A stretch of DNA of 64,000 nt from an uncultured Gammaproteobacteria bacterium (lineage in GTDB: Bacteria; Patescibacteriota; Microgenomatia; Levybacterales; UBA12049). How positions within the stretch are numbered: the first letter of the stretch is position 1; every line of letters starts with the position of its first letter. The notes beneath the pieces were generated by a model, which was not told where the DNA came from, ran no database searches, and saw only the letters and a program-made list of their open reading frames with translations. Made by a program: the position numbers and the translations under genes. The stretch spans positions 53,610-117,609 of the forward strand of contig CAYYSJ010000002.1 of assembly GCA_964474445.1 (NCBI GenBank), written 5' to 3'. This document shows, piece after piece, positions 3,417 through 34,407 of the stretch.

Positions 3417-4771
3417 AATGCTGTTCCACGGCTTATCAAGAATAATACAATACCAATAACCGTTGTGACAATACCGGTTGTTCCTGCAACGACAATGGTA
3501 TTACTTCCTGTTGGTGGAAGTGTAGGGCGAGGTGTGACTGATGGAGTGGTCTTGATAGCCAATGTTGGCTGTAAGGTTGGTGTTAGAGATGAGGGTTGGA
3601 TAGTTGGAGTGGGAGTTGGGATTGCTATGGTTATGGTTGGTTGTGCAGAGGGTGTTGCTGACTGGTCTACCTGGGATCCTGCTGCAAAAACAGTAAATGA
3701 TTGTTCTATGGTGTGTAAAATACCGTTTGCGTCTTTTGTCATAACAGTTAATGTATGGTTACCGGGAGACAATTGCTGTGTTGGGCGATATGTCCAATTA
3801 CCAGCAGTATCTGTTGTAACAGTGCCAGTAATGACTTGGGATGAATGTATCTCTATCGTTACCGTTTGGTTAGGAAGAGCTTTTCCACTAAATCGAGGTT
3901 GTGCATCGGTAAAAGCTTCGTTCTTTTTTGGAGTAATAATAACTGGGGTTGCTGCCAGTGTATTAGAGGATGAAAATGCCGGAAAACCGATAGATGCTGC
4001 TGCAGAATCTGATGCCAAAGGCTGCAATGATGTAGTGAAGTTGTATGTCTGAGAAAGTGTGATAAGAGGGATAGGGTTACTTCCCGATAGTAAAACAGTT
4101 GCTTGAGATGTTGACGTCCCATCGGTTGCTAAAATATGAAGAGGGGTTGCATTTTGGAATACAAAAGGAGTCTTCCCATCAGCTGTTTTGTACGTATTGA
4201 GTGGAATAGTATAGATCCCTGAGGCTTTGGTAAGTGTTGATAATAGTTCTCCTTTATCAGCAGTAACATAAACCAGGGCTTCTCCTGGGATGTTTCCATC
4301 TGCAGTAACCAATTTACCACTCACTGGGTTTTGAGAAGACGGATTGTTATTAAGTTTTGGTGCTGTTTGGAGAGTGAAATATGCGTCGTGATTAAGGTAT
4401 GTTGTTGTCCCCGATGTTATTGAAAAAATATACGCTGTTCCTGGTAGAAGATTTTTGATACTGATACTGTGTACTCTGTAAAGCTGTGGGTTTCCTGACT
4501 GTTGATCTCTCTCATCAAGAATTGTTTTGAGGGAGTTTTTATCTTGTCCCATAGAGATTGTTCCGATAACTTTTGCATCTGTTGTATAAGTAATTGTTGC
4601 ATTAGTATCAGAGATATTGGTTACTCGGACGTTTTGTGGGTTTTCTGAAGGTGCAGCGCCACTAAAAAAAATAACGCCTGATTGCACTAAAAATGTTGTA
4701 CCTAAAACAGTTGCGGTAATAAAAACTAATGCCAAGATTGTAGGAACTTTCCTATTCCAGATGTTTCTCAT
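3413..4771 (-). CDS. Secreted cell-surface protein with Fn3/Ig-like repeats, a Thr/Pro-rich linker and a C-terminal LPPTG sortase-type sorting signal
   Basis: Signal-peptide-like N-terminus. The C-terminus reads ..PTPTPTIQPSSLTPTLQPTLAIKTTPSVTPRPTLPPTGSNTIVVAGTTGIVTTVIGIVLFLISRGTAL (LPxTG + hydrophobic + R). The start overlaps the upstream gene stop by 4 nt. Confidence 0.6.
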   Translation of the reverse strand: MRNIWNRKVPTILALVFITATVLGTTFLVQSGVIFFSGAAPSENPQNVRVTNISDTNATITYTTDAKVIGTISMGQDKNSLKTILDERDQQSGNPQLYRVHSISIKNLLPGTAYIFSITSGTTTYLNHDAYFTLQTAPKLNNNPSSQNPVSGKLVTADGNIPGEALVYVTADKGELLSTLTKASGIYTIPLNTYKTADGKTPFVFQNATPLHILATDGTSTSQATVLLSGSNPIPLITLSQTYNFTTSLQPLASDSAAASIGFPAFSSSNTLAATPVIITPKKNEAFTDAQPRFSGKALPNQTVTIEIHSSQVITGTVTTDTAGNWTYRPTQQLSPGNHTLTVMTKDANGILHTIEQSFTVFAAGSQVDQSATPSAQPTITIAIPTPTPTIQPSSLTPTLQPTLAIKTTPSVTPRPTLPPTGSNTIVVAGTTGIVTTVIGIVLFLISRGTAL

Positions 4772-5088
4772 TGCAGTGAACCTCCTTGAGATGCTACCTT
4801 TGCAGACGCAGTAGCAACATAAAGCGGTGGAAGTGGTGTAGGCGTTGGACTTGGTGTCAGGGAAATCGTTGGTATAGGAGAGATAGTAAAGGCAGGATTG
4901 ACGACAAGACGTTTAGCCATCTTTGCTAGCGTTGCAGTATCAAAGCTTGCTTCAATCGGAGCAATAGCTTCACTTGTTGTTGTGCTGATTGTTGAGGTCT
5001 GTGAGTTGTGAACAATAGTAAATGCGATCCACGCAAAGACAACCACACAGGCTGATGCTAATAAAAATAATACATCTCGTTGTTTCAT
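4768..5088 (-). CDS. Small membrane-anchored protein (possible pilus-assembly accessory)
   Basis: One N-terminal TM helix (LFLLASACVVVFAWIAFTIV) and a Thr/Pro-rich tail. Translationally coupled between the PilO-like and LPPTG genes. Confidence 0.4.
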   Translation of the reverse strand: MKQRDVLFLLASACVVVFAWIAFTIVHNSQTSTISTTTSEAIAPIEASFDTATLAKMAKRLVVNPAFTISPIPTISLTPSPTPTPLPPLYVATASAKVASQGGSLQ

Positions 5089-5090
5089 AC

Positions 5091-5726
5091 TTATGCTTTA
5101 AAATATGTTTTCCCTCGTATTTGCATTCTGAATGTTGTGTCTATCTTACCCACATGGGTAATACTTATTGTTTCAAGGGTGATAAGTCTATTCAAGTTGG
5201 CAAGATTGGTGACATATTTGATCAAATTTGCATAATCTCCTTGTATTTCAATAGAAAATTCATACGTTGTATATTTTGCAGCAGCAGTTTTTTGCGTGAT
5301 ATCAACTGGAAGCGTCTGGACACGGGTTAGCTGTACATTAGAAGTTCCAGCAAGAGTATGAATTTGTCCCATGAATATGTCAATTGATAAATTGGTTGGA
5401 ATTGCATCATAAAGGGGTGGCAATGTGTTTTGTAGATTAGAATAAAGCTGCTGAAGCGTAGTGAGATTAGCTATTTTTTTTTGCAAGCTTTGATGAGTAA
5501 AATTGTCATCGTCTAACTGTTTTTGCAAATCAGCAATAGTACCTAATGTTGGGTTAATTGCAAAAAGACCAAAAAAGGCGATAGTGAGAAGGGTCAGAGT
5601 AAGTGTTGTAAACTGTTTAGCTCGTTTCTCTTTCATACCAGGAATAATTGAAAGGAATAATTTGCTTTCTTTTGGGTTACCAATGCCAAGATTTTTTATA
5701 CTGGGTAAAGATATTTTCAGATTCAT
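5091..5726 (-). CDS. PilO-like type IV pilus assembly protein
   Basis: A single TM helix (TLTLTLLTIAFFGLFAI) followed by a coiled-coil (IADLQKQLDDDN..LQQLYSNLQ) and an alpha/beta C-terminal domain. Adjacent to the PilN-like gene with ATGA overlap. Confidence 0.45.
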   Translation of the reverse strand: MNLKISLPSIKNLGIGNPKESKLFLSIIPGMKEKRAKQFTTLTLTLLTIAFFGLFAINPTLGTIADLQKQLDDDNFTHQSLQKKIANLTTLQQLYSNLQNTLPPLYDAIPTNLSIDIFMGQIHTLAGTSNVQLTRVQTLPVDITQKTAAAKYTTYEFSIEIQGDYANLIKYVTNLANLNRLITLETISITHVGKIDTTFRMQIRGKTYFKA

Positions 5727-6280
5727 AATAGTGTTTTTTGTTTTGTTGTTTTAAAAGTTGCTGTTAATCCAATAGTATACTCTCCTGTTGCTGATTTATT
5801 CTCTAGCTTATCAATACTTACTTTTGCAATTGAAGTATATGCTTTAAGTTTTTTGACAAATGTTGAAAGAGAAACAACAGAACCAACAGAGGCATCAATA
5901 TGAATATCCGTTGTTGAGTAAAAAATATTTTGTACAACCATATCTGATGGGAAAAAGCTGGTAAGATCGAGGAGCGTTTTTAGTTGTGTTGTCGTATCTG
6001 CATCAATAGTTTTTGCAAGTAAAAGCCTATCTTGCACATTGTGATATGTTGTCTCATTGTTTTTGAGTAAACCAACAATAACTTTTTCCTGATTAATCCG
6101 GTCATTAAGGTCAAGAATTTGTCTATCAAGACCAAATCGGAAAAGAAATGCTCCAAGGGCAATCGCCTCAGTTGCTATCACTAATACTCTTCCGATAGAA
6201 AGCGCCCACGAAAAAAAACGGTCAATAAAGTGTTCCCCTCTATTTTTTGCAAGATTAATTGTAGGAGAAGATTTTTCCAT
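5723..6280 (-). CDS. PilN-like fimbrial assembly protein
   Basis: N-terminal INLAKNRGEH.. resembles the PilN INLLP motif. One TM helix, then a coiled-coil/periplasmic domain. 185 aa. Confidence 0.45.
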   Translation of the reverse strand: MEKSSPTINLAKNRGEHFIDRFFSWALSIGRVLVIATEAIALGAFLFRFGLDRQILDLNDRINQEKVIVGLLKNNETTYHNVQDRLLLAKTIDADTTTQLKTLLDLTSFFPSDMVVQNIFYSTTDIHIDASVGSVVSLSTFVKKLKAYTSIAKVSIDKLENKSATGEYTIGLTATFKTTKQKTLL

Positions 6281-17332: not shown

Positions 17333-18475
17333 ATGAAATTATATCCTTTTATTGCATTCCTACTCCTTTTTCTCCTTCTTCCATTTTCTGTTTTTGCTGC
17401 TGATCAGCAAACAGTTATTCTTTCTAAGAATGAAACAGTAAATCATGATTATTTTGCTACAGGAGGAAGTGTTGATATTGCAGGAACAGTCAATGGTGAT
17501 GTCTATGCTGGAGGAGGTAATGTGTTAATTGATGGGACAGTGAATGGTGATGTCCTTGCTGCAGGTGGACAAGTAACAGTAAGGGGAACTGTTCAGAATA
17601 TACGAGTAGCCGGAGGACAAATTGTTATTGACGGCAAGGTCAATGGAAATGTGACTGCTCTTGGAGGGAACATAACGACAACAGACACATCCACTATTAG
17701 CGGAGGCCTTGTTGGTGCAGGGGGACAATATAATTTACTTGGGCCTGTTGGTAAAACCGTCTCCATTGCATCTGGTCAAATAACTCTTGGAAGTATGATC
17801 GGAAGCGATGTCTGGCTGAATAGTCAAACTATTATCCTTACTCCCCAGGCAAAAGTAAATGGAAATGTTTCTTATGTCAGTCCACAGAATGCCCAGATCG
17901 CAAATGGTGCTATTATCAGTGGAAAAGTAAGTCACTCTTTTCCTCCTCAAAAACAGGAAAGACATGCGCGTGGTCTTATTGCAGCACTGGCAGGGCTTCG
18001 AATAGGTGTATCTATCGTGAGCTTTTTAGTAAGTCTTGTCTTTGGACTTTTATTGTTTCTCCTGATTCCTGTATATTCTGAAAGGATAACAGAACATATT
18101 TCACGCCATCCCTGGCAATCACTTCTTGTAGGAATTGTTGGTTGGGTACTCACACCTCTCGCCATTATTCTCCTTACAATAACACTTATTGGTATTCCAT
18201 TTGCAGTGGTTGTAGGCATTGCGATAGGTATCCTTTCCTATATTGGAAAAATCCTTGCGGCGGTTGTTATTGGACAATGGATAGTAGCACGGTTTGATAA
18301 ACGGAAAAATAATATTGTTGCACTCTTGGTTGGACTAATCGCAGTTGAGATAGTTGGACTTATTCCTGTCCTGGGTTGGTTATTTGCGTTTATCGTTGCA
18401 GCCATCGGATTTGGTGCAGTACTTTTTATGGAGAGAATATACTATACAGAATTTCGAGCGAAAAAACTCATTTAA
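17333..18475 (+). CDS. Signal-peptide protein with bactofilin-like beta-helical repeats and a C-terminal multi-TM domain
   Basis: MKLYPFIAFLLLFLLLPFSVFA-AD signal peptide, then repeated (G)TVNGDV.. / AGG.V.I.G.VNGNV motifs, then 4 or more TM helices. Start taken at the second ATG because the TGCTATAAT -10 box ends 2 nt before the first ATG. Confidence 0.5.
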   Translation: MKLYPFIAFLLLFLLLPFSVFAADQQTVILSKNETVNHDYFATGGSVDIAGTVNGDVYAGGGNVLIDGTVNGDVLAAGGQVTVRGTVQNIRVAGGQIVIDGKVNGNVTALGGNITTTDTSTISGGLVGAGGQYNLLGPVGKTVSIASGQITLGSMIGSDVWLNSQTIILTPQAKVNGNVSYVSPQNAQIANGAIISGKVSHSFPPQKQERHARGLIAALAGLRIGVSIVSFLVSLVFGLLLFLLIPVYSERITEHISRHPWQSLLVGIVGWVLTPLAIILLTITLIGIPFAVVVGIAIGILSYIGKILAAVVIGQWIVARFDKRKNNIVALLVGLIAVEIVGLIPVLGWLFAFIVAAIGFGAVLFMERIYYTEFRAKKLI

Positions 18476-19571
18476 CAATTTGTTCCCAGGGAAATCCTTT
18501 TCGTCCAAAGTGGCCATACGCAGCAGTCTTTTTATATAGAGGTTTTCGTAAATCAAGTCGTTTAAGAATACCACTTACAGATGTGTCTAAAAGTTCTTTC
18601 ATAAAATGTTTGATAACCTTGTCGCTCTTTTTAGCAGTTCCAAACGTCTCGATGTCTTGCATAACAGGATGTTTGACTCCAATACAGTAAGCAAGTCTCA
18701 CCTCACATTTTTCAGCCAACTTATGGGCAACGATATTTTTTGCTAAAAACCGTGCAGCATATGCTGCAGACCTATCTACTTTTGTTGGGTCTTTTCCAGA
18801 AAAGGCACCACCACCAATTCGTGCATAGCCTCCATATGTGTCAACAACAATTTTTCTGCCAGTTACCCCAGTATCGCTTGCAGGTCCTCCAATGTGCCAT
18901 ACGCTTGTTCCATTGACAATCAGTTGGTCTTTTTTAATAGCAAATCCATATTTTTTGAGAAGTGGTGAAACTACTTTTTGGTACAAATCATGCTCTACTT
19001 CAGGAAGTGTGACTTTCTCATCATGAGGAACGGCAATAACAACTGTAGTAACTCCTATTGGTTTGCCATTGTTATACTCAACAGTTACTTGTGTTTTGCC
19101 ATCTGGTCGAAGATAAGGTATTTTTTTTGATGTTCGTGCTGTATCCAGTTTTTCAGCAAGTCGATGCGCAAGGGTGATGGGGAGAGGCATCAGCTCTGGT
19201 GTCTCGTTACAAGCAAATCCAAACATCATTCCTTGATCTCCTGCCCCTTCATTATCAACACCAACTGCTATTTCAGGAGATTGCTCATGGATATATACCT
19301 CAACAGAAGATTTATAGGTAAAACGGAAAAGAGGATTGGTATATCCCAAGTCCTTTATGACATTTCGTGCGACTTTCTCAAAGTGTACTTTTGCATTAGC
19401 TGTAACTTCTCCGGCCAACACAATTTTTTCTTCAGTCACCAATGTCTCAACAGCAACTCGTCCTTTAGAATCTTCTCTCAGTACAGCATCCACTATCGCA
19501 TCGCTGACCTGATCACAAATCTTATCAGGGTGTCCACTACAAACTGACTCTGATGTAAAAATACTGCTCAT
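18468..19571 (-). CDS. metK: S-adenosylmethionine synthetase
   Basis: MSSIFTSESVCSGHPDKICDQVSDAIVDA..GAGDQGMMFGFA..GGGAFSGKDPTKVDRSAAYAAR. Start at the internal Met, because the upstream 67 codons of the table ORF are the riboswitch leader. Confidence 0.93.
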   Translation of the reverse strand: MSSIFTSESVCSGHPDKICDQVSDAIVDAVLREDSKGRVAVETLVTEEKIVLAGEVTANAKVHFEKVARNVIKDLGYTNPLFRFTYKSSVEVYIHEQSPEIAVGVDNEGAGDQGMMFGFACNETPELMPLPITLAHRLAEKLDTARTSKKIPYLRPDGKTQVTVEYNNGKPIGVTTVVIAVPHDEKVTLPEVEHDLYQKVVSPLLKKYGFAIKKDQLIVNGTSVWHIGGPASDTGVTGRKIVVDTYGGYARIGGGAFSGKDPTKVDRSAAYAARFLAKNIVAHKLAEKCEVRLAYCIGVKHPVMQDIETFGTAKKSDKVIKHFMKELLDTSVSGILKRLDLRKPLYKKTAAYGHFGRKGFPWEQIVK

Positions 19572-19607
19572 ATGCTTAGACTCCTTTTTCGTCTTCCTTT
19601 TGATTAC

Positions 19608-19745
19608 AAAAAAACCTCTCTTTCGAGAGGTACATGTTTGTTCTACATCTGGAACCACATTTTCCTCTCGGATTCTGGGCACCGTGTCAATAAGGTCGGT
19701 TGCCGGATAGGTCTGGCCTATCTCTCTGAATGTTCTAGGATAAAG
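19608..19745 (-). ncRNA. S-box/SAM-I-like riboswitch leader with an intrinsic terminator upstream of metK
   Basis: The minus-strand RNA contains a hairpin GATAGG-CCAGA-CCTATC, then GGCAACC..(14 nt)..GGUGCC, then AAUCC and GAGAGG. The terminator is CCUCUC-GAAA-GAGAGG + U7 (plus coordinates 19608..19630). The aptamer GAGAGG can pair alternatively with the terminator strand CCUCUC. Confidence 0.5.
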
Positions 19746-19840
19746 TAAAGCAGAAATGTAAAAAGATTGCAAGAGACTAAATGAAAAATACTAAATGTGT
19801 TTCAGGTGTTAGGGAGTCGTATGCTTCACCAAAAAATATT

Positions 19841-21183: not shown

Positions 21184-21651
21184 ATGAAACTGACTGTTGG
21201 GCAAATTGCTCCAGAATTTTCTCTCCCTGATCAAAATGGTGAAATGCATTCTTTATCAGATTATAGAGGAAAGTGGGTTCTTGTCTATTTCTATCCAAAA
21301 GACGACACACCTGGATGTACAACGGAAGCATGTAGCTTTCGTGATAACCTGCCGCACTTTACCAGTCAAAGAGCTATTGTTTTAGGCGTTAGTGCAGATA
21401 CGGTAAAAAGTCATAAAAAATTCACAGAAAAATATACACTTCCATTCACATTACTTGCAGATGAAGAGAAAAAAGTGGTCAAAGATTACGATGTCTGGCA
21501 TGTGAAGAAATTTATGGGGAAAGAATTTTTTGGAATACTAAGAACATCTTTTCTCATAAATCCAGAAGGGAAAATTATAAAAATTTATGAAGGGGTAAAA
21601 CCAGCAGAACATGCGCAGCAAGTCCTCCAAGATTTAACAGCCCTCACATAA
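21184..21651 (+). CDS. bcp: Thiol peroxidase Bcp (peroxiredoxin)
   Basis: YFYPKDDTPGCTTEACSFRD peroxidatic-Cys motif. 155 aa. Confidence 0.85.
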   Translation: MKLTVGQIAPEFSLPDQNGEMHSLSDYRGKWVLVYFYPKDDTPGCTTEACSFRDNLPHFTSQRAIVLGVSADTVKSHKKFTEKYTLPFTLLADEEKKVVKDYDVWHVKKFMGKEFFGILRTSFLINPEGKIIKIYEGVKPAEHAQQVLQDLTALT

Positions 21652-21660
21652 AAGATCTTC

Positions 21661-21691
21661 TTGACTCTTACGTTTCGTCATAGTTTATACT
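21661..21691 (+). promoter_or_regulatory. MerR-type promoter with a 19-nt spacer (TTGACT-19-TATACT) abutting the regulator start codon
   Basis: -35 at 21661..21666 and -10 at 21686..21691. Over-long 19-bp spacers are characteristic of MerR-family controlled promoters. This implies leaderless or second-ATG (21698) initiation. Confidence 0.45.
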
Positions 21692-22459
21692 ATGGCTATG
21701 AAATATACAGTACATGAATTGGCACAATTTTCTGGTATGAGTATTCGTACCCTTCATTATTATGACGAAATTGGACTTCTTAGACCAGAAAGTATAGGCA
21801 AAAATGGCTATCGATATTATGGCGAAAAGGAGATGGTACAACTCCAACAAATTCTTTTTTATAAAGAATTAGACTTTTCTTTGGATGAGATACAAAGATT
21901 GGTAAATGATCTGAATTTTGATATTGAACAAGCATTGCAAGATCATAAAAAGTTACTAATTGCAAAGAAAAAACGTATTGATAGTTTACTGATAACTATA
22001 GATAAAACAGTAAAACATTTGAAAGGAGGTGAAAGAATGACTAACGATGACTTATATCAAGGTTTTTCTGATGAAGAGCTGAATAAATTACAAGAAGAAG
22101 CTAAAGAACGTTGGGGTCATACTGATGCATATAAACAGTCTATAGAAAGAACCAAAGGTTGGACAAAGACTGATTATGATAGAACAGCAAAAAAGCAAAC
22201 TGATATTACAAAAGATCTTGCCGATCTTATGAAAAAAGGAGTTAGTCTGGAGAGCCCAGAGGTTCAGGCGGTTGTTGAAAGACATTATCAATACATTAAC
22301 CAGTTCTATGATGCATCAAATGCAATGTATCGGAATTTAGGAGAAATGTACGTTATAGATCTACGGTTTACTGCATACTATGATAAATTTGCACATGGTC
22401 TTGCAGTATTTATGAGAGACGCCATTGCTTATTACTGTAAGAATCATGGAGAAAAATAA
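21692..22459 (+). CDS. MerR-family transcriptional regulator with a TipAS/Mta-like C-terminal effector domain
   Basis: MKYTVHELAQFSGMSIRTLHYYDEIGLLRPESIGKNGYRYYGEKEMVQLQQILFYKELDFSLDEIQ is a MerR HTH plus coiled-coil. The C-terminal about 140 aa are TipAS-like. Confidence 0.8.
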   Translation: MAMKYTVHELAQFSGMSIRTLHYYDEIGLLRPESIGKNGYRYYGEKEMVQLQQILFYKELDFSLDEIQRLVNDLNFDIEQALQDHKKLLIAKKKRIDSLLITIDKTVKHLKGGERMTNDDLYQGFSDEELNKLQEEAKERWGHTDAYKQSIERTKGWTKTDYDRTAKKQTDITKDLADLMKKGVSLESPEVQAVVERHYQYINQFYDASNAMYRNLGEMYVIDLRFTAYYDKFAHGLAVFMRDAIAYYCKNHGEK

Positions 22460-22575
22460 AGAGGAGGCAGTGGTACCCTGCCTCTCTTATTATTAATAGA
22501 AAAGGAGTTAAAAAATTTGAATTTTATAACGTTATTTGCTAGTATCAACCTGGCTCTCGTAGAGAGAGTTTTTTT

Positions 22576-23382
22576 ATGAAAGCACTTGTTATCAATAATA
22601 CCTTTGAAGATAAAAAGAAAAGTCAGCTGCGAAATTCTATCTATCGAAAGCAAAAAATTCTGGAAGAATGGACAGAAAAAGTAGAAGAACTGCGTATGGA
22701 ACTTGAGCTCATTAAACATGAGTATCATGTGAGAGTTGGAGGGTTATTGTTAAAAGATAATCAACTTGATCTAGAAATACTACAGCTGAAAAATCTAAAA
22801 GAAAAAATGGCACAAGGTATGAGTTATGGTGAAGCTATAAAAGAAGATGAAGACGCATTCTATAATGAAATTCTCCGAATGCAAAAAGAACAAGAAACAA
22901 TTGAAGAGGAAAAAGAAATGCTGCAGAAAAGAGAAATAGTTGATAGTACTGTTGCAGAAGAAGTGAAATCGCTCTGGAAAAAACTTATCAGAAAATTTCA
23001 TCCAGATTTAGTTACAGATACTGATGAAAAACTTCGAAGAGAAGAGATTATGAAAAAGATAAATTTAGCATACACTCATTATGATATAGAAACTCTTAAG
23101 GCATTTGAAAACAATGTGGACATTGAAGATATAGCTCAATCAACTGTAGAAAGGCTCGAAGTTATTCTTATAGAAATTGAGAATAATGTAGAAGATTTGA
23201 GACTAGAATGGCTTGAGCTAAAAAATTCAATATGGTATTCATGGAAAATAAAAAAACAAAAAACCGCGAAACAAGAGGATGTTTTTGCTGATCTTGAAAA
23301 AACACTCTTGGATGATGTTGTAAAGAAGATAAAAATTCTTCAAGAGCTCCGTCGAGAAGTTATTCCAGATTACCCAATGTAA
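22576..23382 (+). CDS. Coiled-coil protein with an internal J-domain (HPD motif)
   Basis: LWKKLIRKFHPDLVTDTDEKLRREEIMKKINLAYTHY is J-domain helices II-III with HPD. The rest is a charged coiled-coil. Confidence 0.55.
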   Translation: MKALVINNTFEDKKKSQLRNSIYRKQKILEEWTEKVEELRMELELIKHEYHVRVGGLLLKDNQLDLEILQLKNLKEKMAQGMSYGEAIKEDEDAFYNEILRMQKEQETIEEEKEMLQKREIVDSTVAEEVKSLWKKLIRKFHPDLVTDTDEKLRREEIMKKINLAYTHYDIETLKAFENNVDIEDIAQSTVERLEVILIEIENNVEDLRLEWLELKNSIWYSWKIKKQKTAKQEDVFADLEKTLLDDVVKKIKILQELRREVIPDYPM

Positions 23383-23477
23383 ATAGTAAAAGAATGCCTG
23401 TGCCTTTATCGCTAATCACGCAATGGATTTAGAGGAATAGACAAAAAAACTACAATAAGTCTCATCTGTTTGTTATC

Positions 23478-23506
23478 AACTTTTCACCAGAATTTTACCT
23501 TGCAAG
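23478..23506 (+). promoter_or_regulatory. Sigma70-like promoter TTGCAA-17-TATAGT upstream of hsp20
   Basis: cTTGCAAgtacattattgTATAGTatgg immediately upstream of the Hsp20 start. Confidence 0.4.
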
Positions 23507-23513
23507 TACATTA

Positions 23514-23978
23514 TTGTATAGTATGGCAGTTATCAGATGGAATCCATGGAGCATAGAAAATTTCTTTGACGATGAGGGATTAGATATGCCAACAATACCA
23601 GGACTTTCTAGACTGGGACAAGGATTGAATTTGTATGAAACAAATGATGGAGTGTTTGCTGAGGTTGCATTGCCTGGTGTTTCTTCTGACAAGATTGATA
23701 TAACAGTTGAGGATGGATTAGTTCGAATAACAGGTGAACAAGAACAGAAAAGAGAAAAAAAAGAGAACACACGTTACTTTATGAATTCACTTTCTGCTTC
23801 ATATAATTATGCATTCCGATTGCCAAAAGATGTTGATCAAAATGCAGAGCCCGAGGCAACATGGGATAATGGCATTCTCCGGTTAATGTTCACCAAAGTG
23901 CAAAAAACACAGCCTAAAAGAATTTCAGTAAAAACGAAAGAAAAGGAAAATAAAAGTAAAGAGAAGGAGATAAAGTGA
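23514..23978 (+). CDS. Small heat shock protein (Hsp20/alpha-crystallin family)
   Basis: Alpha-crystallin domain: YETNDGVFAEVALPGVSSDKIDITVEDGLVRITGE...ASYNYAFRLP..ATWDNGILRLMF. Confidence 0.85.
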   Translation: MYSMAVIRWNPWSIENFFDDEGLDMPTIPGLSRLGQGLNLYETNDGVFAEVALPGVSSDKIDITVEDGLVRITGEQEQKREKKENTRYFMNSLSASYNYAFRLPKDVDQNAEPEATWDNGILRLMFTKVQKTQPKRISVKTKEKENKSKEKEIK

Positions 23979-24102
23979 ATGTCACAAGGACATCTAAATC
24001 CTATTCAAGTCCAAAAAAACATGTAAGGGAATAGATTATACCTGTTCCTTACTAACCTCATTCTTGACAAGATTTTTTTATCCATAGATACTACTAATAC
24101 CT

Positions 24103-24486
24103 ATGGATTTTAATTCTCAACAGATACAAGAGATAAATGATATACAGGCAATAGAAAAGCAAATTGCTTCAGATGAACAGCCTCATATATTGACCGAAAA
24201 CGTTGAAGTAGATAGATCAACGCTGAAAAATTTACTTGCATCATTTGGGATTATTGTCGTTGGAGGAGCAGCAATACTCCTTATTTTTATTTCGTTTCCC
24301 TCTGTAAAGAAAAAATTAGCTACAGTTCCTTCTCCTAAGACGGTTGATACCACAATGACAATTCCAATAGCATCTGATTCTGCTATTACGGTTCAAACAG
24401 AATATACAAATCCTTTTGACGCAAAAACCCAATATGAAAATCCCTTCTTAGCATCCAGAAATCCATTTGACAATATAACACAATGA
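24103..24486 (+). CDS. Hypothetical single-pass membrane protein
   Basis: One TM helix (FGIIVVGGAAILLIFISF). Overlaps the downstream gene start by 4 nt. Confidence 0.35.
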   Translation: MDFNSQQIQEINDIQAIEKQIASDEQPHILTENVEVDRSTLKNLLASFGIIVVGGAAILLIFISFPSVKKKLATVPSPKTVDTTMTIPIASDSAITVQTEYTNPFDAKTQYENPFLASRNPFDNITQ

Positions 24487-25622
24487 AACAAATAGGAAGT
24501 ATTCTCAGTATCACAATAGCTTTTTTTGCTCTGTCGTTATTTCAGGTTTTTGCACAGACTCCAACAACTGTGGAACAACAAGTATCGAGTCAATACAATA
24601 TAACATTTCCAATTGTGGAATTAGGGAATTGCACAGATCTTTCAAGTTGTAAAGCGTATTGTAATGATTCATCTCATCAACAAGCTTGCGTCGACTTTGC
24701 TAAGAAAAAAGGATTTTATAAGGAGACAACACTTGATACACAGAAAACAACAGTTTTACAATCTGCTAAAACAGATTTAGGATGCGATTCTGAAGAGACA
24801 TGTAGACAAGCATGTGAAAAAAAAGAAAATTTTGAGAAATGTGCTCAGTTTGCAAAAAGATTTAATTTAAAGGGAGGCCAGCCTAGCAACACGTCGGATA
24901 CTACTATTTTGCAAAGAGCAAAAACCATGTTGGGATGTACATCTGTCGACTCATGTAAATTGTTTTGTCAGCAAGGCGAAAATCAACAAAAATGTTCGAA
25001 TTTCGCAAAACAGGTAGGGTTAAGGGGTGGAACAACACAAGTTGGTCCTGGTGGATGTTCCTCTATTGACTCATGCAGAGCATACTGCATTGATCCAAGT
25101 CATTCTCAAATTTGTAGGCAATTTGCTCCTAAGAGTGGGAATCCCTCAGGTGAACTAAGACCACAGGTGAAAGGGCCTGGAGGTTGTATGAGCGAAGAGT
25201 CATGCAGAGCATATTGTGCTAATCACCCAGAAGCTTGTCATCACGGAGATAACAGTGTCCCAAGCAATATAATGTCACCATCTCCATACCATTCTCAGAT
25301 AGTACCATCCTCTTCAAATCAGTCAGATGATTGTAAAATGTATCCTGATCATTGTCATATACAAACACCTCAAGGTGCTATTACTAATAATCCACCTGTT
25401 CATGTCGATGACCCTGCATCAAATTGCGCAAGAAATAATTGTATTTGGACAGGAGGCACCTGCGTTTGTCCAAGTAAACAGCCAATAGAATCTGGTAGCC
25501 CAATTCCAGCACAACCTTCAACACCTGTCGTTTCACCTTTTCCTACAGTGCAACAAGTGCATGCAGCAGCAACCCACAAAAATATTATGCAGTGGTTATG
25601 GGATTATTTTTTCCTCAAATAA
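24483..25622 (+). CDS. Secreted cysteine-rich tandem-repeat protein (five C-x5-C-x3-C-x7-C modules)
   Basis: Signal peptide MKQIGSILSITIAFFALSLFQVFAQT. Five repeats of about 45 aa follow, e.g. GCDSEETCRQACEKKENFEKCAQFAKRF, GCTSVDSCKLFCQQGENQQKCSNFAKQV, GCSSIDSCRAYCIDPSHSQICRQFAPKS. There are extra Cys and His in the C-terminal 100 aa. Confidence 0.55.
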   Translation: MKQIGSILSITIAFFALSLFQVFAQTPTTVEQQVSSQYNITFPIVELGNCTDLSSCKAYCNDSSHQQACVDFAKKKGFYKETTLDTQKTTVLQSAKTDLGCDSEETCRQACEKKENFEKCAQFAKRFNLKGGQPSNTSDTTILQRAKTMLGCTSVDSCKLFCQQGENQQKCSNFAKQVGLRGGTTQVGPGGCSSIDSCRAYCIDPSHSQICRQFAPKSGNPSGELRPQVKGPGGCMSEESCRAYCANHPEACHHGDNSVPSNIMSPSPYHSQIVPSSSNQSDDCKMYPDHCHIQTPQGAITNNPPVHVDDPASNCARNNCIWTGGTCVCPSKQPIESGSPIPAQPSTPVVSPFPTVQQVHAAATHKNIMQWLWDYFFLK

Positions 25623-25624
25623 AG

Positions 25625-25957
25625 TTATTTAATTTCCAGAAGTTCTATATCAAAAACAAGAGTTGCAAAGCCAGGGATATCTCCAGCACCGTATTTACCG
25701 TATCCATATTGATAAGGGATCGTTAATTTCCTTTTTCCTCCCACTCTCATGCCAGGAATTCCTACATCCCATCCCCTTATCACATATCCCGCGCCTATTT
25801 GGACTTCAAATGGCTCTTTTCTATCATACGAGCTATCAAATTGTTTGCCATCAGGGAAGTATCCTTTATAGTGAACGATAATAGTATCTCCTTCTTTTAC
25901 TTCTTGTCCTGTGCCTTTTGTAAGATCTTCAATATGTAATTTTTCTTCACTGTCCAT
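25625..25957 (-). CDS. FKBP-type peptidyl-prolyl cis-trans isomerase
   Basis: 110 aa. GDTIIVHYKGYFPDGKQFDSSYDRKEPFEVQIGAGYVIRGWDVGIPGMRVGGKRKLTIP is the canonical FKBP fold. Confidence 0.85.
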   Translation of the reverse strand: MDSEEKLHIEDLTKGTGQEVKEGDTIIVHYKGYFPDGKQFDSSYDRKEPFEVQIGAGYVIRGWDVGIPGMRVGGKRKLTIPYQYGYGKYGAGDIPGFATLVFDIELLEIK

Positions 25958-26029
25958 ATTACAAGTATAGCAAAAAGAGGAAGATAAAACAGAGGATTTT
26001 TAGCTTGACAACTCTGCTATACTGAATAT

Positions 26030-26443
26030 ATGGATATTACGAAAAAAGATGAGACAAACTCATTAAAAAATAAAGGGGAGGATTTTTGGAAAAAGAAATT
26101 AACTCCGGAGCAATATCATGTACTGCGGGAAAAAGGAACAGAAACACCATTTTCAGGGAAGTTTTATAAAAATTTTGAGAAAGGAATGTATGTTTGTGCT
26201 GCTTGTGGACAAGAACTATTTTCTTCAGACACGAAATTTGATAGCGATTGTGGTTGGCCAAGTTTTGATAAATCACTGGCAGGAAATGTTCAGTTGCGTG
26301 ATGATTATTCTTTTGGTATGCATCGTATTGAGGTAACCTGCAGTAAATGTGGGTCTCATTTGGGACACGTATTTGATGATGGTCCTACAGAAACAGGAAA
26401 GAGATTTTGCATTAACTCCGTCTCTTTAGATTTTAAAAAATAA
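26030..26443 (+). CDS. msrB: Peptide-methionine (R)-S-oxide reductase MsrB
   Basis: [24 protein letters not shown]...[16 protein letters not shown] SelR signature with two CxxC pairs. Confidence 0.9.
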
Positions 26444-27329: not shown

Positions 27330-27956
27330 CTATTTCTTTTCAAGAACATTTACAGTAAGTTCGTTATTGTGATAGTCAAATACAATATCAATTGGTTTAT
27401 CTTTGTTATTTTTAACATATAAATTTTGCAATGCATTGTTATTTGTTTGGCCAGGCATAAAGTAAATTGCGGTACCAAATTCTCTTGGAATTTCTGGGAT
27501 GACAGCGAAATCGTGATTAGTTGGAGAAACAACTTGTAACCCTGCTTTGAAAGCTGCTTCATGGATAAGAGAAGCTAAGTGACAGACTCCATCTGCAACC
27601 AGATAACCGTCTGATTTAAATCCTTCACTTGCCCCAAAATGAGCATTCGTTGTTTTTACAATTTTGCCCGCAAACTCTGGAAGAATGTCTTCATGGAATG
27701 CAAATACCTCACCAGGCTTAAGCGTAAATGAATAGGTGAATGGTTGCTCAACAATATTCCAGTTTGGATTATTTGTTATCGTCATACCACGCATGTATGC
27801 AAGCGTAAGGAGGATGTTATCTTTAAAAACATCATTCACAAACGTATTTGCATATCGTTTTTCAAGAGAAAACGCCTGGCTTCCCAACACAGATGGTGGT
27901 TGGGACATGCTTACTGCTGTAAACATACCGAGCGCAAAAAGTAAATTTAATAGCAT
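27330..27956 (-). CDS. VanW-like domain secreted protein
   Basis: Signal peptide. The segment DGVCHLASLIHEAAFKAGLQVV resembles the VanW core motif GGGVCQVSSTLYNAALLAGL. Weak. Confidence 0.4.
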   Translation of the reverse strand: MLLNLLFALGMFTAVSMSQPPSVLGSQAFSLEKRYANTFVNDVFKDNILLTLAYMRGMTITNNPNWNIVEQPFTYSFTLKPGEVFAFHEDILPEFAGKIVKTTNAHFGASEGFKSDGYLVADGVCHLASLIHEAAFKAGLQVVSPTNHDFAVIPEIPREFGTAIYFMPGQTNNNALQNLYVKNNKDKPIDIVFDYHNNELTVNVLEKK

Positions 27957-28920: not shown

Positions 28921-29589
28921 TTGGTTATAGTAGTCTCCTGTATGTTTGTCTTTTCCACAATAGGAATTCCTGTCGTTTCGTTACTCCTTTCATTCCTTTA
29001 TCCTCAAGGCATTCAGGCCAAAAGTATACCACCTCTAGAACATCGTACTGTTCAAACACTCACTCGTCCAACACTTCCTGTCCTGCCAAGTCGTCCAGTT
29101 TTTAATGATAGATATACAACAACTTCATCAATCACACCCACAAAGGTAGCATCTATAACTAACCAGCCAACGACACAAACGCAATCAACCCCAACGCCAA
29201 CTGACTCAACTGTTCCAAGTGCCACTCCTGTCCAGACGGATGATAAAAAACACTTTATTATGAATGCAATTAACCAGTATCGTGCTTCCTATGGGTTACA
29301 ACCAGTCAGTATGAATGATACAACATGTAATTTTGCAAAAATCCGTGCAATAGAAATAACAAGTAACTTTAACCATGATGGGTTTAATCAGCGTATTCAA
29401 AACCATACCTTGCCATATCCAAGTTATTCACTCGTTACCGAAAATATTGCTGAGACGAGTAATTATCAGGAGGTTGTTACTATGTGGGCAAATTCTCCTG
29501 GTCATGCTGCAAATATGCGAGCCGACACTCCTTATGTCTGTGTTGAAAGCAATAATAATAACTACTACGCCTTTGAGGGATGGCGGTAA
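28921..29589 (+). CDS. CAP/SCP/PR1-like (YkwD-type) secreted protein
   Basis: Signal peptide and a Thr/Pro-rich linker. The CAP domain reads HFIMNAINQYRASYGLQPVSMNDTTCNFAKIRA...MWANSPGHAANM. Confidence 0.6.
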   Translation: MVIVVSCMFVFSTIGIPVVSLLLSFLYPQGIQAKSIPPLEHRTVQTLTRPTLPVLPSRPVFNDRYTTTSSITPTKVASITNQPTTQTQSTPTPTDSTVPSATPVQTDDKKHFIMNAINQYRASYGLQPVSMNDTTCNFAKIRAIEITSNFNHDGFNQRIQNHTLPYPSYSLVTENIAETSNYQEVVTMWANSPGHAANMRADTPYVCVESNNNNYYAFEGWR

Positions 29590-29687: not shown

Positions 29688-30527
29688 ATGAAACGGTTGT
29701 TATTTCTTATTCTTCCAATACTACTTGCGATAGCAACATTTACCTCATTTTCTTTTATGCTTTCTCAAAGTACTTCAGGAAAAGGAGCACTGCAGGTAAC
29801 TTCAATTCCAGCAAGTAATGTCTATCTCAATGGAAAACTGGTAGGAAAGACACCTTTTTGCCAATGTGAAGGTAAAGACATGCTTGCTACTGGAGATTAT
29901 ACGTTAAAGTTAGTCCCTCTTGCGGGAGATAATCTTGATACCTACGAACAGAGGATCACTATTACAAAATCAATTCTTACAGTTGTTGATAGGACGTTTG
30001 GTGTAGGAGCTCTTTCAAGCGGATTTGTCATTAACCTTAGCCCTCTTTCAGACAATAATGCTGTACAATTGTTTATCTCCTCATTTCCTTCCGGTGCTCG
30101 TCTTAGTATTGATGGCAACGATTCAGGGCAAACACCATTGCTACTTAAAAATATCACATCATCCGACCACGATCTTGTTCTTGCAAAACCTGGATATAAA
30201 TCTAAGACTGTTCATGTTCAAACTCACCCTGGGTATCAGTTAAATGCAACTGTTTTTCTTGCTTTGCTCCCTCCTGATGCTAGTAGTGCAGCAATATTTG
30301 ATAACACAGGACTGACTCCCATACAAAAGCAAAAAGTGGTCATTTTAAATACTCCAACTGGATTTTTACGTGTGCGCTCTGACCCTTCTTTAGTAGGAAG
30401 CGAATCTGCACAAGTGAGACCTGGTGATATCTTTGAACTAGCCAGCGAACAGGATGGTTGGTATCAGATTAAACTTAAAGATGGAACGTTGGGGTGGGTT
30501 AGTGCTACCTATGCAAAGAAGCAGTAA
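29688..30527 (+). CDS. PEGA-domain protein with a C-terminal bacterial SH3 domain
   Basis: Signal/TM N-terminus. Two PEGA-like modules (VTSIPASNVYLNGKLVGKTP; ISSFPSGARLSIDGNDSGQTP). The C-terminal SH3b-like segment is FLRVRSDPSLVGSESAQVRPGDIFELASEQDGWYQIKLKDGTLGWV. Confidence 0.6.
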   Translation: MKRLLFLILPILLAIATFTSFSFMLSQSTSGKGALQVTSIPASNVYLNGKLVGKTPFCQCEGKDMLATGDYTLKLVPLAGDNLDTYEQRITITKSILTVVDRTFGVGALSSGFVINLSPLSDNNAVQLFISSFPSGARLSIDGNDSGQTPLLLKNITSSDHDLVLAKPGYKSKTVHVQTHPGYQLNATVFLALLPPDASSAAIFDNTGLTPIQKQKVVILNTPTGFLRVRSDPSLVGSESAQVRPGDIFELASEQDGWYQIKLKDGTLGWVSATYAKKQ

Positions 30528-32598: not shown

Positions 32599-32966
32599 AG
32601 AATCACCTGAAAAATTCTCATTACAAAAATTAACACAAAGAAGGCAAGCGCTGCATTTGTGACAAAAACAAATCGGGCGAGAAGAGGATTTTTTTTGAGA
32701 AACTGAGTACCTAAAAAGAGATTGCTTAGTATGAGAATAAGTGAAAGCAATATTGGGACAAAAATTTCATATGTTCTTCCAAGTCTTTGATATCCCCATG
32801 GCTCGTGGTTATAGAGAGGCAAAAAAGGAGGTAGTTGTCGATATAAGAGAGCAACTCCTGCAACGACAAAAAGAAGAAGACTAAAGCTTATGATAAAGCT
32901 CCACCATGCAACATTGTCTGATTGTAATTGTTTAATAAGTCCTTTCATAGATAATAGCATTATCAA
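32595..32966 (-). CDS. Small membrane protein (3 TM helices)
   Basis: Hydrophobic 123 aa. Translationally coupled between the GT-C and WecA-like genes. Confidence 0.35.
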   Translation of the reverse strand: MIMLLSMKGLIKQLQSDNVAWWSFIISFSLLLFVVAGVALLYRQLPPFLPLYNHEPWGYQRLGRTYEIFVPILLSLILILSNLFLGTQFLKKNPLLARFVFVTNAALAFFVLIFVMRIFQVIL

Positions 32967-34407
32967 ATGTTATTTTCATTTTGTAATGTTTTAATTGATA
33001 TGGCATATTGCCTGCATTTTGAAGAATAATAACATACTTTGGCATTGTTTGTATAAGTGCAGTTTGTGTTTCCTTTATGGTTGTTCCATTTGCTGTAATA
33101 TGGTATGCAACAGTGTATTTCCCCGGAGGAAGGCTATTCGTTAATTTATAAATCTGAGCGCTATTCCCCCAAATGAAAATTTGCTCGTTATGTTTACGAA
33201 CAGTTTGTATATATGCTGCAACATCATAATCTTGGGGGGTCTGTTGATCAAAAAAAGTTTGATATGCCTCAGTTGTTTTTTTACCAGCAGCATAGGATAG
33301 GTAATTTGCGTAATACAAAAATGTTTTATTGTAGTACCAAAAGTTTTTGGCGATAAAAAAGACGATCACAATAAGAAGAATACTATGGAGCACTTTTTGC
33401 TTTTGTTGCTGTATAAGAAGTCCAATGAATAAAGAAAAACTTGCAATGAAAACTAAAAGATAATGTGTATATGGTCGTTGTGAGAAAAGCGCACTAAAAA
33501 GAGAAAAGGAAAGCCAAATATAAACAAAAAGTTGAGTAAGGGAAAAGACTTGTTTTTTCCATAAAAGTATAAGACATAGACCTCCCAAAATAAAAATTTT
33601 TCCAAGTAACAATCCTTGAGGGATAATAAATTGGTTGCCGTAATTTACATACCCCACATTACTAAAGAAGGCTGATTGGAGAAATATTTTAAGCGCTCCA
33701 TGTGTTACAAAAAAGACAATTGTTAGAATGAGTGGAACAAAAAATGCCGAGAGAAAAACTGCGCTATAGGTAAGAGTTTGTTTGATCAATTTGGTAAAGG
33801 AATGGAGTTGAAAATAACAAACAAAAAGGAAAAACCAAAACGCTGCTATATCAAAAATAGCTACAACTTTTATGAGAAATGATATTCCTAGGGCCATTCC
33901 TGCCAGACCTACAAGGATGTAATCTTTATTTACTGTTTGTTTCTTTTGTGCAACATAAAGTATCAGTAGAGCGCTTATTAACGAAGGTAAAACCATAAAA
34001 TTTTCTGCATTTGCAATATTCCCTTCAAGAAACGGAAGTCCTAGGAGAAGTGCAAACAGGAATGTACTAGCATAGTAAGCAGTTTTTTTAGCGAAGAGTT
34101 TTTTTGCAATGAAGAAAAAGAGAAGAACAGCAAGAAGACCAACAATACAAGAAAAAATCTTAACTGGCATTTGATCTCCCTGAAACAGTGAATAGATAAG
34201 ATACAAGAAAGGTGGTTTGTTATCCCAAATGTCCCTATAGAGAAATCTCCCGTGCCGTAGTCCAAGTCCGACCACTTCATAAATTCCTTCATCACCATAC
34301 CAATACGGTTCAAAAAAAGAAGGAAGTCTTAGGAAGAAAAAAAGAATACTTGTTGATAGGACAAACCAAAAGTCGAGGGATTGCTGAAGACGAGTAAGAA
34401 GTTTCAT
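32932..34407 (-). CDS. GT-C fold glycosyltransferase (PMT_2/ArnT-like)
   Basis: 491 aa polytopic protein. The N-terminal motif FFEPYWYGDEGIYEVVGLGLRHG (DE motif) precedes about 12 TM helices. Confidence 0.6.
   Translation of the reverse strand: MKLLTRLQQSLDFWFVLSTSILFFFLRLPSFFEPYWYGDEGIYEVVGLGLRHGRFLYRDIWDNKPPFLYLIYSLFQGDQMPVKIFSCIVGLLAVLLFFFIAKKLFAKKTAYYASTFLFALLLGLPFLEGNIANAENFMVLPSLISALLILYVAQKKQTVNKDYILVGLAGMALGISFLIKVVAIFDIAAFWFFLFVCYFQLHSFTKLIKQTLTYSAVFLSAFFVPLILTIVFFVTHGALKIFLQSAFFSNVGYVNYGNQFIIPQGLLLGKIFILGGLCLILLWKKQVFSLTQLFVYIWLSFSLFSALFSQRPYTHYLLVFIASFSLFIGLLIQQQKQKVLHSILLIVIVFFIAKNFWYYNKTFLYYANYLSYAAGKKTTEAYQTFFDQQTPQDYDVAAYIQTVRKHNEQIFIWGNSAQIYKLTNSLPPGKYTVAYHITANGTTIKETQTALIQTMPKYVIILQNAGNMPYQLKHYKMKITFDNAIIYERTY

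Follow-up and report, generated by a model that had tools for sequence, protein, structure and literature searches.

A conserved gene pair in Microgenomates encodes a secreted protein of cysteine-rich repeat modules and a candidate membrane partner with an NPF tail

What role might be played by an exported bacterial protein that is built from repeated cysteine-rich units and belongs to no named family? The question is raised by the gene at 24483-25622 of the window, i.e., the whole 64,000-nucleotide (64-kb) stretch of contig CAYYSJ010000002.1 (assembly GCA_964474445.1) analyzed here. The initial annotation of this DNA had described a secreted protein of five tandem modules, and had proposed that these could be novel extracellular binding, antimicrobial or metal-handling modules. 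The explanation that best accounts for the locus as a whole, to which we give a probability of about 45%, is that this Cys-repeat gene and the small gene directly upstream form a cassette for a disulfide-stabilized surface protein and a membrane partner with a tail of Asn-Pro-Phe (NPF) motifs, the two proteins acting together. The partner, a conserved amphipathic C-terminal tail and the large unannotated family to which the protein belongs had not been part of the initial annotation.

The open reading frame (ORF) was confirmed as described; it is the sole long frame in its stretch, and an identical gene call of 379 amino acids (aa) is present in public assemblies. The parts of the protein are given below. 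Conservation here and in what follows refers to an alignment of 99 homologous sequences, and confidence (predicted local distance difference test, pLDDT) to an AlphaFold2 prediction made with that alignment.

24483..25622, + strand: Cys-repeat protein gene, ATG start, 379 aa plus stop (ORF list)
24483..24554, + strand: Sec-type signal peptide, aa 1-24, read from the sequence, without lipobox or twin-arginine motif
24588..24722, + strand: module 1, aa 36-80, opening with the family hallmark FPIxELGNC
24741..24875, + strand: module 2, aa 87-131, C101/C107/C111/C120/F123 invariant
24894..25028, + strand: module 3, aa 138-182, C152/C158/C162/C171/F174/A175 invariant, pLDDT ~92
25029..25148, + strand: module 4, aa 183-222, GPGGC type, pLDDT 82-89
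25158..25268, + strand: module 5, aa 226-262, GPGGC type with a shorter C-x6-C last spacer, pLDDT 83-91
25326..25361, + strand: 2-Cys mini-module, aa 282-293, C-x6-C, family form C[RK]ENPDKC
25413..25472, + strand: 4-Cys mini-module, aa 311-330, family form CxxxGCxWxGxxCxC, pLDDT ~92
25473..25556, + strand: Pro/Ser/Thr-rich low-complexity linker, aa 331-358, pLDDT <50
25557..25619, + strand: conserved C-terminal tail, aa 359-379, VHAAATHKNIMQWLWDYFFLK, a V-[QKRH]-G-x-x-T motif followed by an amphipathic helix

The N-terminus, MKQIGSILSITIAFFALSLFQVFA followed by QT, has the n-region, the h-region and the A-x-A-like features of a Sec signal peptide, and A24 is at least 90% conserved, in keeping with the secretion first proposed. 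The protein contains 26 Cys and 11 His residues. Twenty of the Cys fall in five units (aa 50-69, 101-120, 152-171, 192-211 and 235-252), and the six that remain belong to two other units, one with two Cys (aa 284/291) and the other with four (aa 315-329). When the five units were aligned locally in pairs, each of the ten alignments scored above residue shuffles (z = 5.4 to 19.1, with 0-1/300 shuffles reaching the score), which bears out the five-fold repeat. The motif originally written for the repeat was essentially right and needed correction in its details: the units read C-x5-C-x3-C-x8-C in units 1-4, with a last spacer of x6 in unit 5, rather than x7 or x(5-7); unit 1 reads G-N-C, not G-C; and unit 5 is without the F-A. 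Two C-terminal strings picked out with the repeat, DDCKMYPDHCHI and NCARNNCIWTGGTCVCP, are present. At the DNA level repeats among the units are negligible, i.e., imperfect matches of just 16-23 nt, so that the duplication of the modules appears to be ancient; a recent DNA-level tandem duplication was ruled out by the same comparison.

Each module Cys is invariant or at least 90% conserved across the alignment, and so are the glycines of GPGGC. In module 1 the invariant positions are P43, L47, C50, C56, C60, C69, G77 and F78; in module 4 they are G188, G190, G191, C192, C198, C202 and C211; and in module 5, G231-C235, C241, C245, P249 and C252 are at least 90% conserved. By a strict pattern, five modules were counted in 124 of 165 complete proteins. 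The C-terminal half varies across the family, with differing numbers of mini-modules and low-complexity stretches rich in P/T/S/Y: the 2-Cys mini-module differs in copy number among homologues, the 4-Cys mini-module occurs in 1-4 copies, and the Pro/Ser/Thr-rich linker varies widely in length and composition. Family proteins span ~320-1,555 aa, and distant variants carry up to ~15 modules (e.g., P0224 with 1,555 aa and P0215 with 829 aa). These variants were without a Pfam domain, save for Big_13 in P0127. The latter, of 913 aa, is a fusion variant in which a full five-module protein is extended by a second partial module set, the Big_13 Ig-like domain and a C-terminal transmembrane (TM) helix with a basic tail, a layout that would anchor its module array directly in the membrane.

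The family is unnamed and large. A word-indexed search retrieved 974 proteins at E<=0.001, all called 'hypothetical' and none with a Pfam domain, the named few coming from Candidatus Roizman-, Gottesman-, Levy- and Daviesbacteria. A HMMER profile scan of 1.84 billion cluster representatives gave 1,821 matches at E<=0.001 and 1,072 at E<=1e-30, all unannotated; the family had not been recognized by name at the outset and still is not, and the protein is no orphan. A single peptide pattern located 57 loci in species-representative genomes. By record title, 20 of these belong to Microgenomates lineages (Levy- 4, Roizman- 5, Gottesman- 2, Davies- 5, Woesebacteria 2 and Microgenomates 2), 11 to 'Patescibacteria group', one to Eisenbacteria and one to a 'bacterium'. 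The other 24 come from one third party annotation (TPA) series of metagenome-assembled genomes (CAY*/CAZ*) under the unverified titles 'uncultured Gammaproteobacteria' or 'Pseudomonadales' (L008, L014, L016, L020, L024-L028, L031, L037-L040, L043, L045, L049, L051, L053, L054, L057, L059, L062 and L063); these loci hold the same cassette as the named Microgenomates genomes, and their titles look like placeholder or wrong taxonomy.

The predicted structure resolved the protein into compact helical modules with pLDDT 83-97. Residues 40-130 exceed 90, with module 1 above that value and high confidence unbroken from module 1 into module 2, module 3 stands at ~92, and modules 4 and 5 at 82-91; the linkers fall below 50 and the predicted template modelling score (pTM) is 0.39. 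Because the modules are confident, the linkers are not and the pTM is low, the prediction is best pictured as beads on a string. Every module is predicted to be helical: its first Cys sits in an extended cap, and C2 and C3 share one helix at a distance of four residues. For the 4-Cys mini-module the prediction gives a short helix and then a beta-hairpin.

Are these cysteines then paired with each other, or do they hold metal? The suggestion that an even number of Cys be looked for, as needed for disulfides, was borne out: from the first module onward the count is even in 164 of 165 complete homologues, at totals of ~20 to 50, as it is in the window protein, and this supports paired cysteines. 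An even count is equally compatible with Cys4 sites, and a metal-binding or metal-buffering protein, in which the four invariant thiolates of each module would form a site for Zn, Cu(I), Cd or similar and serve in surface metal sequestration or delivery, has further points in its favor in the extra His near the C-terminus of the window protein and in the redox and stress genes nearby in this genome (peroxiredoxin, MerR/TipAS, Hsp20 and MsrB). The family also uses 2-Cys units, however, and a lone 2-Cys mini-module cannot form such a site, yet parity is kept; for this reason disulfides rather than metal sites are favored. Nor does the geometry suit a metal site. Zinc knuckles and ribbons are built on CxxC pairs, which the module spacing does not resemble and of which none is present, and C2 and C3 lie within one predicted helix; no conserved His or Asp was found among the aligned homologues, the His residues of the window protein included; no metal-binding family was matched in Pfam or NCBIfam or by Pfam on the 99 homologues; and the stress-gene neighborhood is not conserved across loci. 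Together with Sec-type export, these observations make the metal-handling module of the initial annotation less likely than disulfides, and we consider it quite unlikely. An MdbA-like thiol-disulfide oxidoreductase and VKOR have been reported in bacteria of the Candidate Phyla Radiation (CPR; PMC6744442). Disulfides are plausible because module cores of ~30 residues need covalent staples and because this oxidizing machinery is on record for the CPR.

No described family or fold accounted for the protein. Searches with the Cys-repeat protein gave 0 Pfam matches at E<=10, i.e., no clear match to an anaphylatoxin-like or other described domain, which leaves its claimed novelty standing. The 99 homologues shared no Pfam family, six unrelated families being hit by 1-2 members each (best E = 9e-4), and NCBIfam returned PorD alone at noise level (E = 0.08, 13 bits against a cutoff of 60). 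Among PDB sequences the single sequence reached a best E of 0.35 and the 99-sequence profile gave 0 matches at E<=10, and no fold similarity to PDB chains was found. A literature search found no paper describing the family; the unnamed 'secreted cysteine-rich protein' beside a CRISPR locus in a Roizmanbacteria paper cannot be equated with it. What remains is an unnamed FPIxELGNC/GPGGC family of Cys4 modules, represented in the window by a protein with an N-terminal cap, tandem C-x5-C-x3-C-x(6-8)-C modules and the NPF-tail TM partner upstream.

An antimicrobial role had also been suggested, and a secreted Cys-rich protein beside a small single-pass membrane protein does bear a superficial resemblance to a bacteriocin and its immunity protein. 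We regard this reading, in which the secreted protein would be antimicrobial or toxin-like and the small membrane protein would confer immunity, as very unlikely. The proteins are large and modular, with Sec signal peptides, stalk-like linkers and a putative anchoring tail; the cassette occurs widely across the lineage and keeps to a fixed design of five modules, being neither patchy nor hypervariable; and no transporter, leader-peptidase or mobile-element neighbors are conserved. PADLOC matched neither protein; in PHROGs the Cys-repeat protein was without a match and the partner reached an unannotated family alone (E = 0.022). Nothing tested favored an antimicrobial module, with no defence, phage or bacteriocin-type matches or neighbors.

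That the Cys-repeat protein may not act alone is suggested by the gene that precedes it, whose parts are as follows.

24103..24486, + strand: partner gene, 127-aa single-pass membrane protein, directly upstream of the Cys-repeat gene (ORF list)
24235..24291, + strand: partner TM helix, aa 45-63, LASFGIIVVGGAAILLIFI, with a Kyte-Doolittle 19-residue window >2.5
24400..24483, + strand: partner C-terminal NPF-repeat tail, aa 100-127, EYTNPFDAKTQYENPFLASRNPFDNITQ, with three NPF motifs

In the partner an acidic N-terminal region is followed by a single TM helix, an S/T/P-rich linker and the NPF-repeat tail; the protein had no Pfam match. In 34 diverse partners N103, P104, P121 and F122 of the tail are invariant and F105, N113-F115 and N120 are at least 90% conserved, giving the family consensus EYxNPFDKxxQYVNPFSxYKNPFDxLK. 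The partner stop and the ATG of the Cys-repeat gene overlap by 4 bp (ATGA), an overlap that recurs in most homologous loci, and no Shine-Dalgarno-like sequence was found upstream of that ATG; given both, the two genes are probably translationally coupled. A partner-type gene stands directly upstream on the same strand in about 50 of 58 loci (49 of the 58 are grouped by BLAST clustering), and motif and hydrophobicity criteria yielded 54 distinct partners across related loci. No gene family but this one is conserved around the Cys-repeat gene in the 58 loci, where the next most frequent neighbors are penicillin-binding proteins (PBPs) in 7, VanW in 5 and MsrB in 4. The pairing also persists at a distance: all six of the distant many-module variants keep a partner (43-61% GC; partners of 75-101 aa with 2-4 NP[FL] motifs at the end). 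The reverse search agreed. Sequence comparison barely reveals the partner family: the window partner alone found 3 matches, and a profile of 34 partners found 66, all of 73-133 aa and unannotated except for one Joint Genome Institute (JGI) label; one of these matches (P0276), without BLAST similarity to the window partner, precedes a 749-aa FPIPELGNC protein with ~10 GPGGC modules. The JGI label, "flagellar basal body-associated protein FliL" on P0284, was taken as spurious. On a Daviesbacteria contig (L023, 1720-3738 and 3962-5383) the pair of NPF partner and Cys-repeat gene is duplicated in tandem.

Where on the secreted protein might the partner make contact? The C-terminal tail, with the Microgenomates-subfamily consensus VQGASTxrSLFQxILdfFfxl, i.e., the motif and then ~16 residues, is present in 91 of 120 homologues by regular expression and in 165 of 250 by a looser pattern. 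In those 165 tails the mean hydrophobic moment is 0.62 and the mean hydrophobicity 0.26, and 78% exceed their own shuffles by >1 sd; AlphaFold2 placed a helix at 368-377. The tail is thus amphipathic. The part that follows the motif averages 15.7 aa, and stretches free of polar or charged residues reach on average 4.5 residues at their longest, so that it is not a TM helix. No LPXTG-like pentapeptide was found in the tail, the motif V-[QKRH]-G-x-x-T being without Pro, and a sortase-, exosortase- or rhombosortase-type signal, i.e., a ~20-residue hydrophobic TM helix with basic residues, was likewise not found there. A hidden Markov model of the tail had no match outside this family in the 12 kb surrounding the gene in the window and in ~500 kb of related loci, and the looser pattern found no other ORF with the tail across all 64 kb. 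The sole extra match in the related loci (L041, 542-1012) has GTPSY repeats and then a VSGVST... tail upstream of the main copy, and is probably the C-terminal end of a second copy. A general sorting signal was considered for the tail and judged improbable, given that no other carrier family appeared in the scanned DNA and that the tail is shorter and more polar than a TM anchor would be. The partner is kept where the VQG tail is absent, and P0239, P0182 and P0171 are without any hydrophobic tail, which suggests that the partner makes contact with the Cys modules or through the TM helix. One NPF motif per module was ruled out, since there are 2-4 NPF motifs whether a protein has 5 or ~15 modules.

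The main alternative to a surface complex depends entirely on the topology of the partner. Here the NPF tail would lie in the cytoplasm and recruit an intracellular factor, and the TM helix would pair with the amphipathic or hydrophobic C-terminal tail of the secreted protein, so that the module array is linked to the cell interior for signaling or positioning. The membrane orientation of the partner is indeed ambiguous. Lysine and arginine counts slightly favor a cytoplasmic C-terminus, with the C-terminal flank richer in 28 homologues and the N-terminal flank in 14; in the window partner the N-terminus is acidic (net -6) and the TM helix is followed by KKK; the distant variants have a charged Ala/Glu/Lys helix next to the membrane in place of a PT-rich linker; and many variants keep some hydrophobic C-terminal tail. 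Against such coupling, the three proteins devoid of a hydrophobic C-terminal tail nevertheless come with a partner, short N-termini bearing K/R ahead of a hydrophobic stretch resemble ordinary N-in signal anchors, the linker between TM helix and NPF tail in Microgenomates partners is PT-rich like extracellular stalks and resembles the PT-rich linker of the secreted protein, and no candidate cytoplasmic NPF-binding protein is conserved nearby in the 58 loci. On this evidence we judge the coupling device unlikely. The charge counts nonetheless weigh against our preferred explanation, for a cytoplasmic NPF tail could have no contact with the modules. The same direction is taken by the ~8 of 58 loci without a recognizable partner, several of which are contig ends or start-calling problems, by an NPF count (2-4) that does not scale with module count (5 to ~15), and by the fact that no homology implies a ligand.

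The explanation that we prefer, a surface protein and its partner, can be set out as a sequence of steps. The genes at 24103-24486 and 24483-25622 would form a conserved bicistronic cassette for a two-protein component of the cell envelope. The Sec pathway would export the 379-aa product, with the signal peptide removed after A24. Outside the cell the five ~45-aa helical modules and the two mini-modules would be locked by intramolecular disulfides, two in each 4-Cys module and one in the 2-Cys mini-module, probably made by an oxidizing system of the MdbA/VKOR type. The flexible Pro/Ser/Thr linker may serve as a stalk, and the C-terminal amphipathic helix may rest on the outer face of the membrane in the manner of the PBP5 C-terminal helix. 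The co-translated single-pass partner would hold or organize the Cys-repeat protein at the surface, with its C-terminal NPF short linear motifs as the likely contact with the Cys modules, and the displayed modules would constitute a stable array with a structural or a ligand-binding (adhesive) function. A more specific version, that of an undescribed two-component surface system of the CPR in which a disulfide-stapled helical repeat fold is tethered and organized by an extracellular NPF tail docking on the Cys4 modules, is tentative and, on balance, rather doubtful. Such a tethering system could be part of an apparatus for attachment to hosts or particles.

The wider neighborhood of the cassette in the window is given here.

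21184: peroxiredoxin (Pfam)
21692: MerR/TipAS regulator (Pfam)
22576: J-domain-like protein, below the Pfam cutoff
23514: Hsp20 (Pfam)
24064..24092, + strand: promoter-like site TTGACA-17-GATACT, 10/12 match in a consensus scan, 11 nt upstream of the partner gene
25625, - strand: FKBP (Pfam)
26030: MsrB, also adjacent in 4/58 related loci

The promoter-like site is a pattern match alone, of a kind found 11 times in the region against 7.6 expected by chance. The stress and redox genes form a cluster around the cassette (21184-23978 and 25625-26443), and as a clue to function this neighborhood was dropped, only the partner being conserved across the 58 loci. A gene for a VanW-like protein is found no more than a few kb from the cassette both in the window (27330-27956, - strand) and in four other loci (e.g., L003, 9346-9975), probably as residual synteny. 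In two loci of distant many-module variants, secD and secF directly follow the cassette (L066, 5648-8030, and L072, 6704-8267). Two further proteins of secreted or surface type are encoded close to the cassette, namely a CAP-domain protein (28921-29589) and a protein with PEGA and bacterial SH3 domains (29688-30527). The window also has several PMT_2 glycosyltransferases (484-2091 and 32932-34407, both - strand), and such genes stand beside the cassette in L005 and L065 as well. The genes at 3413-6280 on the - strand, which encode a Big_13 Ig-like protein (3413-4771) and, next to it, a PilO-like protein (5091-5726) and a 185-aa product without annotation (5723-6280), may be part of a type IV pilus set. 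Elsewhere in the window, a SAM-I/IV riboswitch (19624-19738, - strand; Rfam RF01725, 47.8 bits against a gathering score of 41.1) sits in the leader of metK, which encodes S-adenosylmethionine (SAM) synthetase (ORF 18468-19772, - strand); since the TTG-started ORF overruns the riboswitch, the true start of metK is probably further downstream.

A large share of bacterial diversity belongs to the CPR/Patescibacteria, most of which are thought to live attached to other cells; to our knowledge, almost nothing is known about their surface proteins. The cassette is widespread in Microgenomates without annotation or structural precedent, and its invariant triple-NPF peptide offers a testable molecular handle. 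If the two proteins do form a surface complex, they would represent a new domain family and a new bacterial motif-domain interaction, a marker or antigen by which Microgenomates cells could be labeled or enriched, and, in organisms that are often counted among the strict anaerobes, one more heavy client of the extracytoplasmic disulfide machinery. Were the product merely a structural wall protein, the result would still provide an annotation for several thousand proteins labeled hypothetical.

How does this cassette compare with known systems? The modules as predicted share with anaphylatoxin-like and fibulin-type domains that they are small, helical, disulfide-rich, extracellular and able to occur in tandem; those domains have six Cys in a different pattern, whereas the modules here have four and are without a Pfam or structural match to them. 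With the CHCH twin-Cx9C proteins and the twin-Cx3C alpha/alpha toxins they have in common a tiny helix-loop-helix with four Cys and a CxxxC on one helix face. Those hairpins are built on two equal CxnC motifs, however, whereas each module here has a single Cx3C and no CHCH-type fold match, so that the likeness to CHCH or other Cys-stabilized alpha/alpha hairpins reflects only the general principle of disulfide-stapled helices. The Csp copper storage proteins are likewise bacterial and rich in Cys, with CxxxC on their helices; they form a single four-helix bundle with a Cys-lined core, in contrast to the string of separate four-Cys modules seen here, which matched no Pfam or NCBIfam family. Known adhesin domains have no sequence or fold relation to the Cys-repeat protein.

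For the architecture as a whole, the C-terminally anchored surface proteins of Gram-positive bacteria (LPXTG/sortase substrates) offer a parallel in the order of parts, which runs from the signal peptide through tandem modules on the N-terminal side and a Pro/Thr-rich stalk to a short conserved element at the C-terminus; unlike them, the protein described here is without an LPXTG-like pentapeptide, a TM segment or a basic cluster after the motif. An amphipathic C-terminal helix is the peripheral membrane anchor of PBP5/6 in E. coli. Ligands of eukaryotic Eps15 homology (EH) domains carry several NPF tripeptides in a flexible tail, as does the partner, with three in the window, an arrangement to be expected where a short linear motif binds a small helical domain; this is an analogy and not a homology, since neither the Cys-repeat protein nor its 99 homologues matched an EH domain or EF-hand, and the proteins are bacterial and probably extracytoplasmic. 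Thus, the domain family and the partner family are undescribed, and the general category to which they belong, that of secreted, Cys-stabilized, repetitive surface proteins, is a familiar one.

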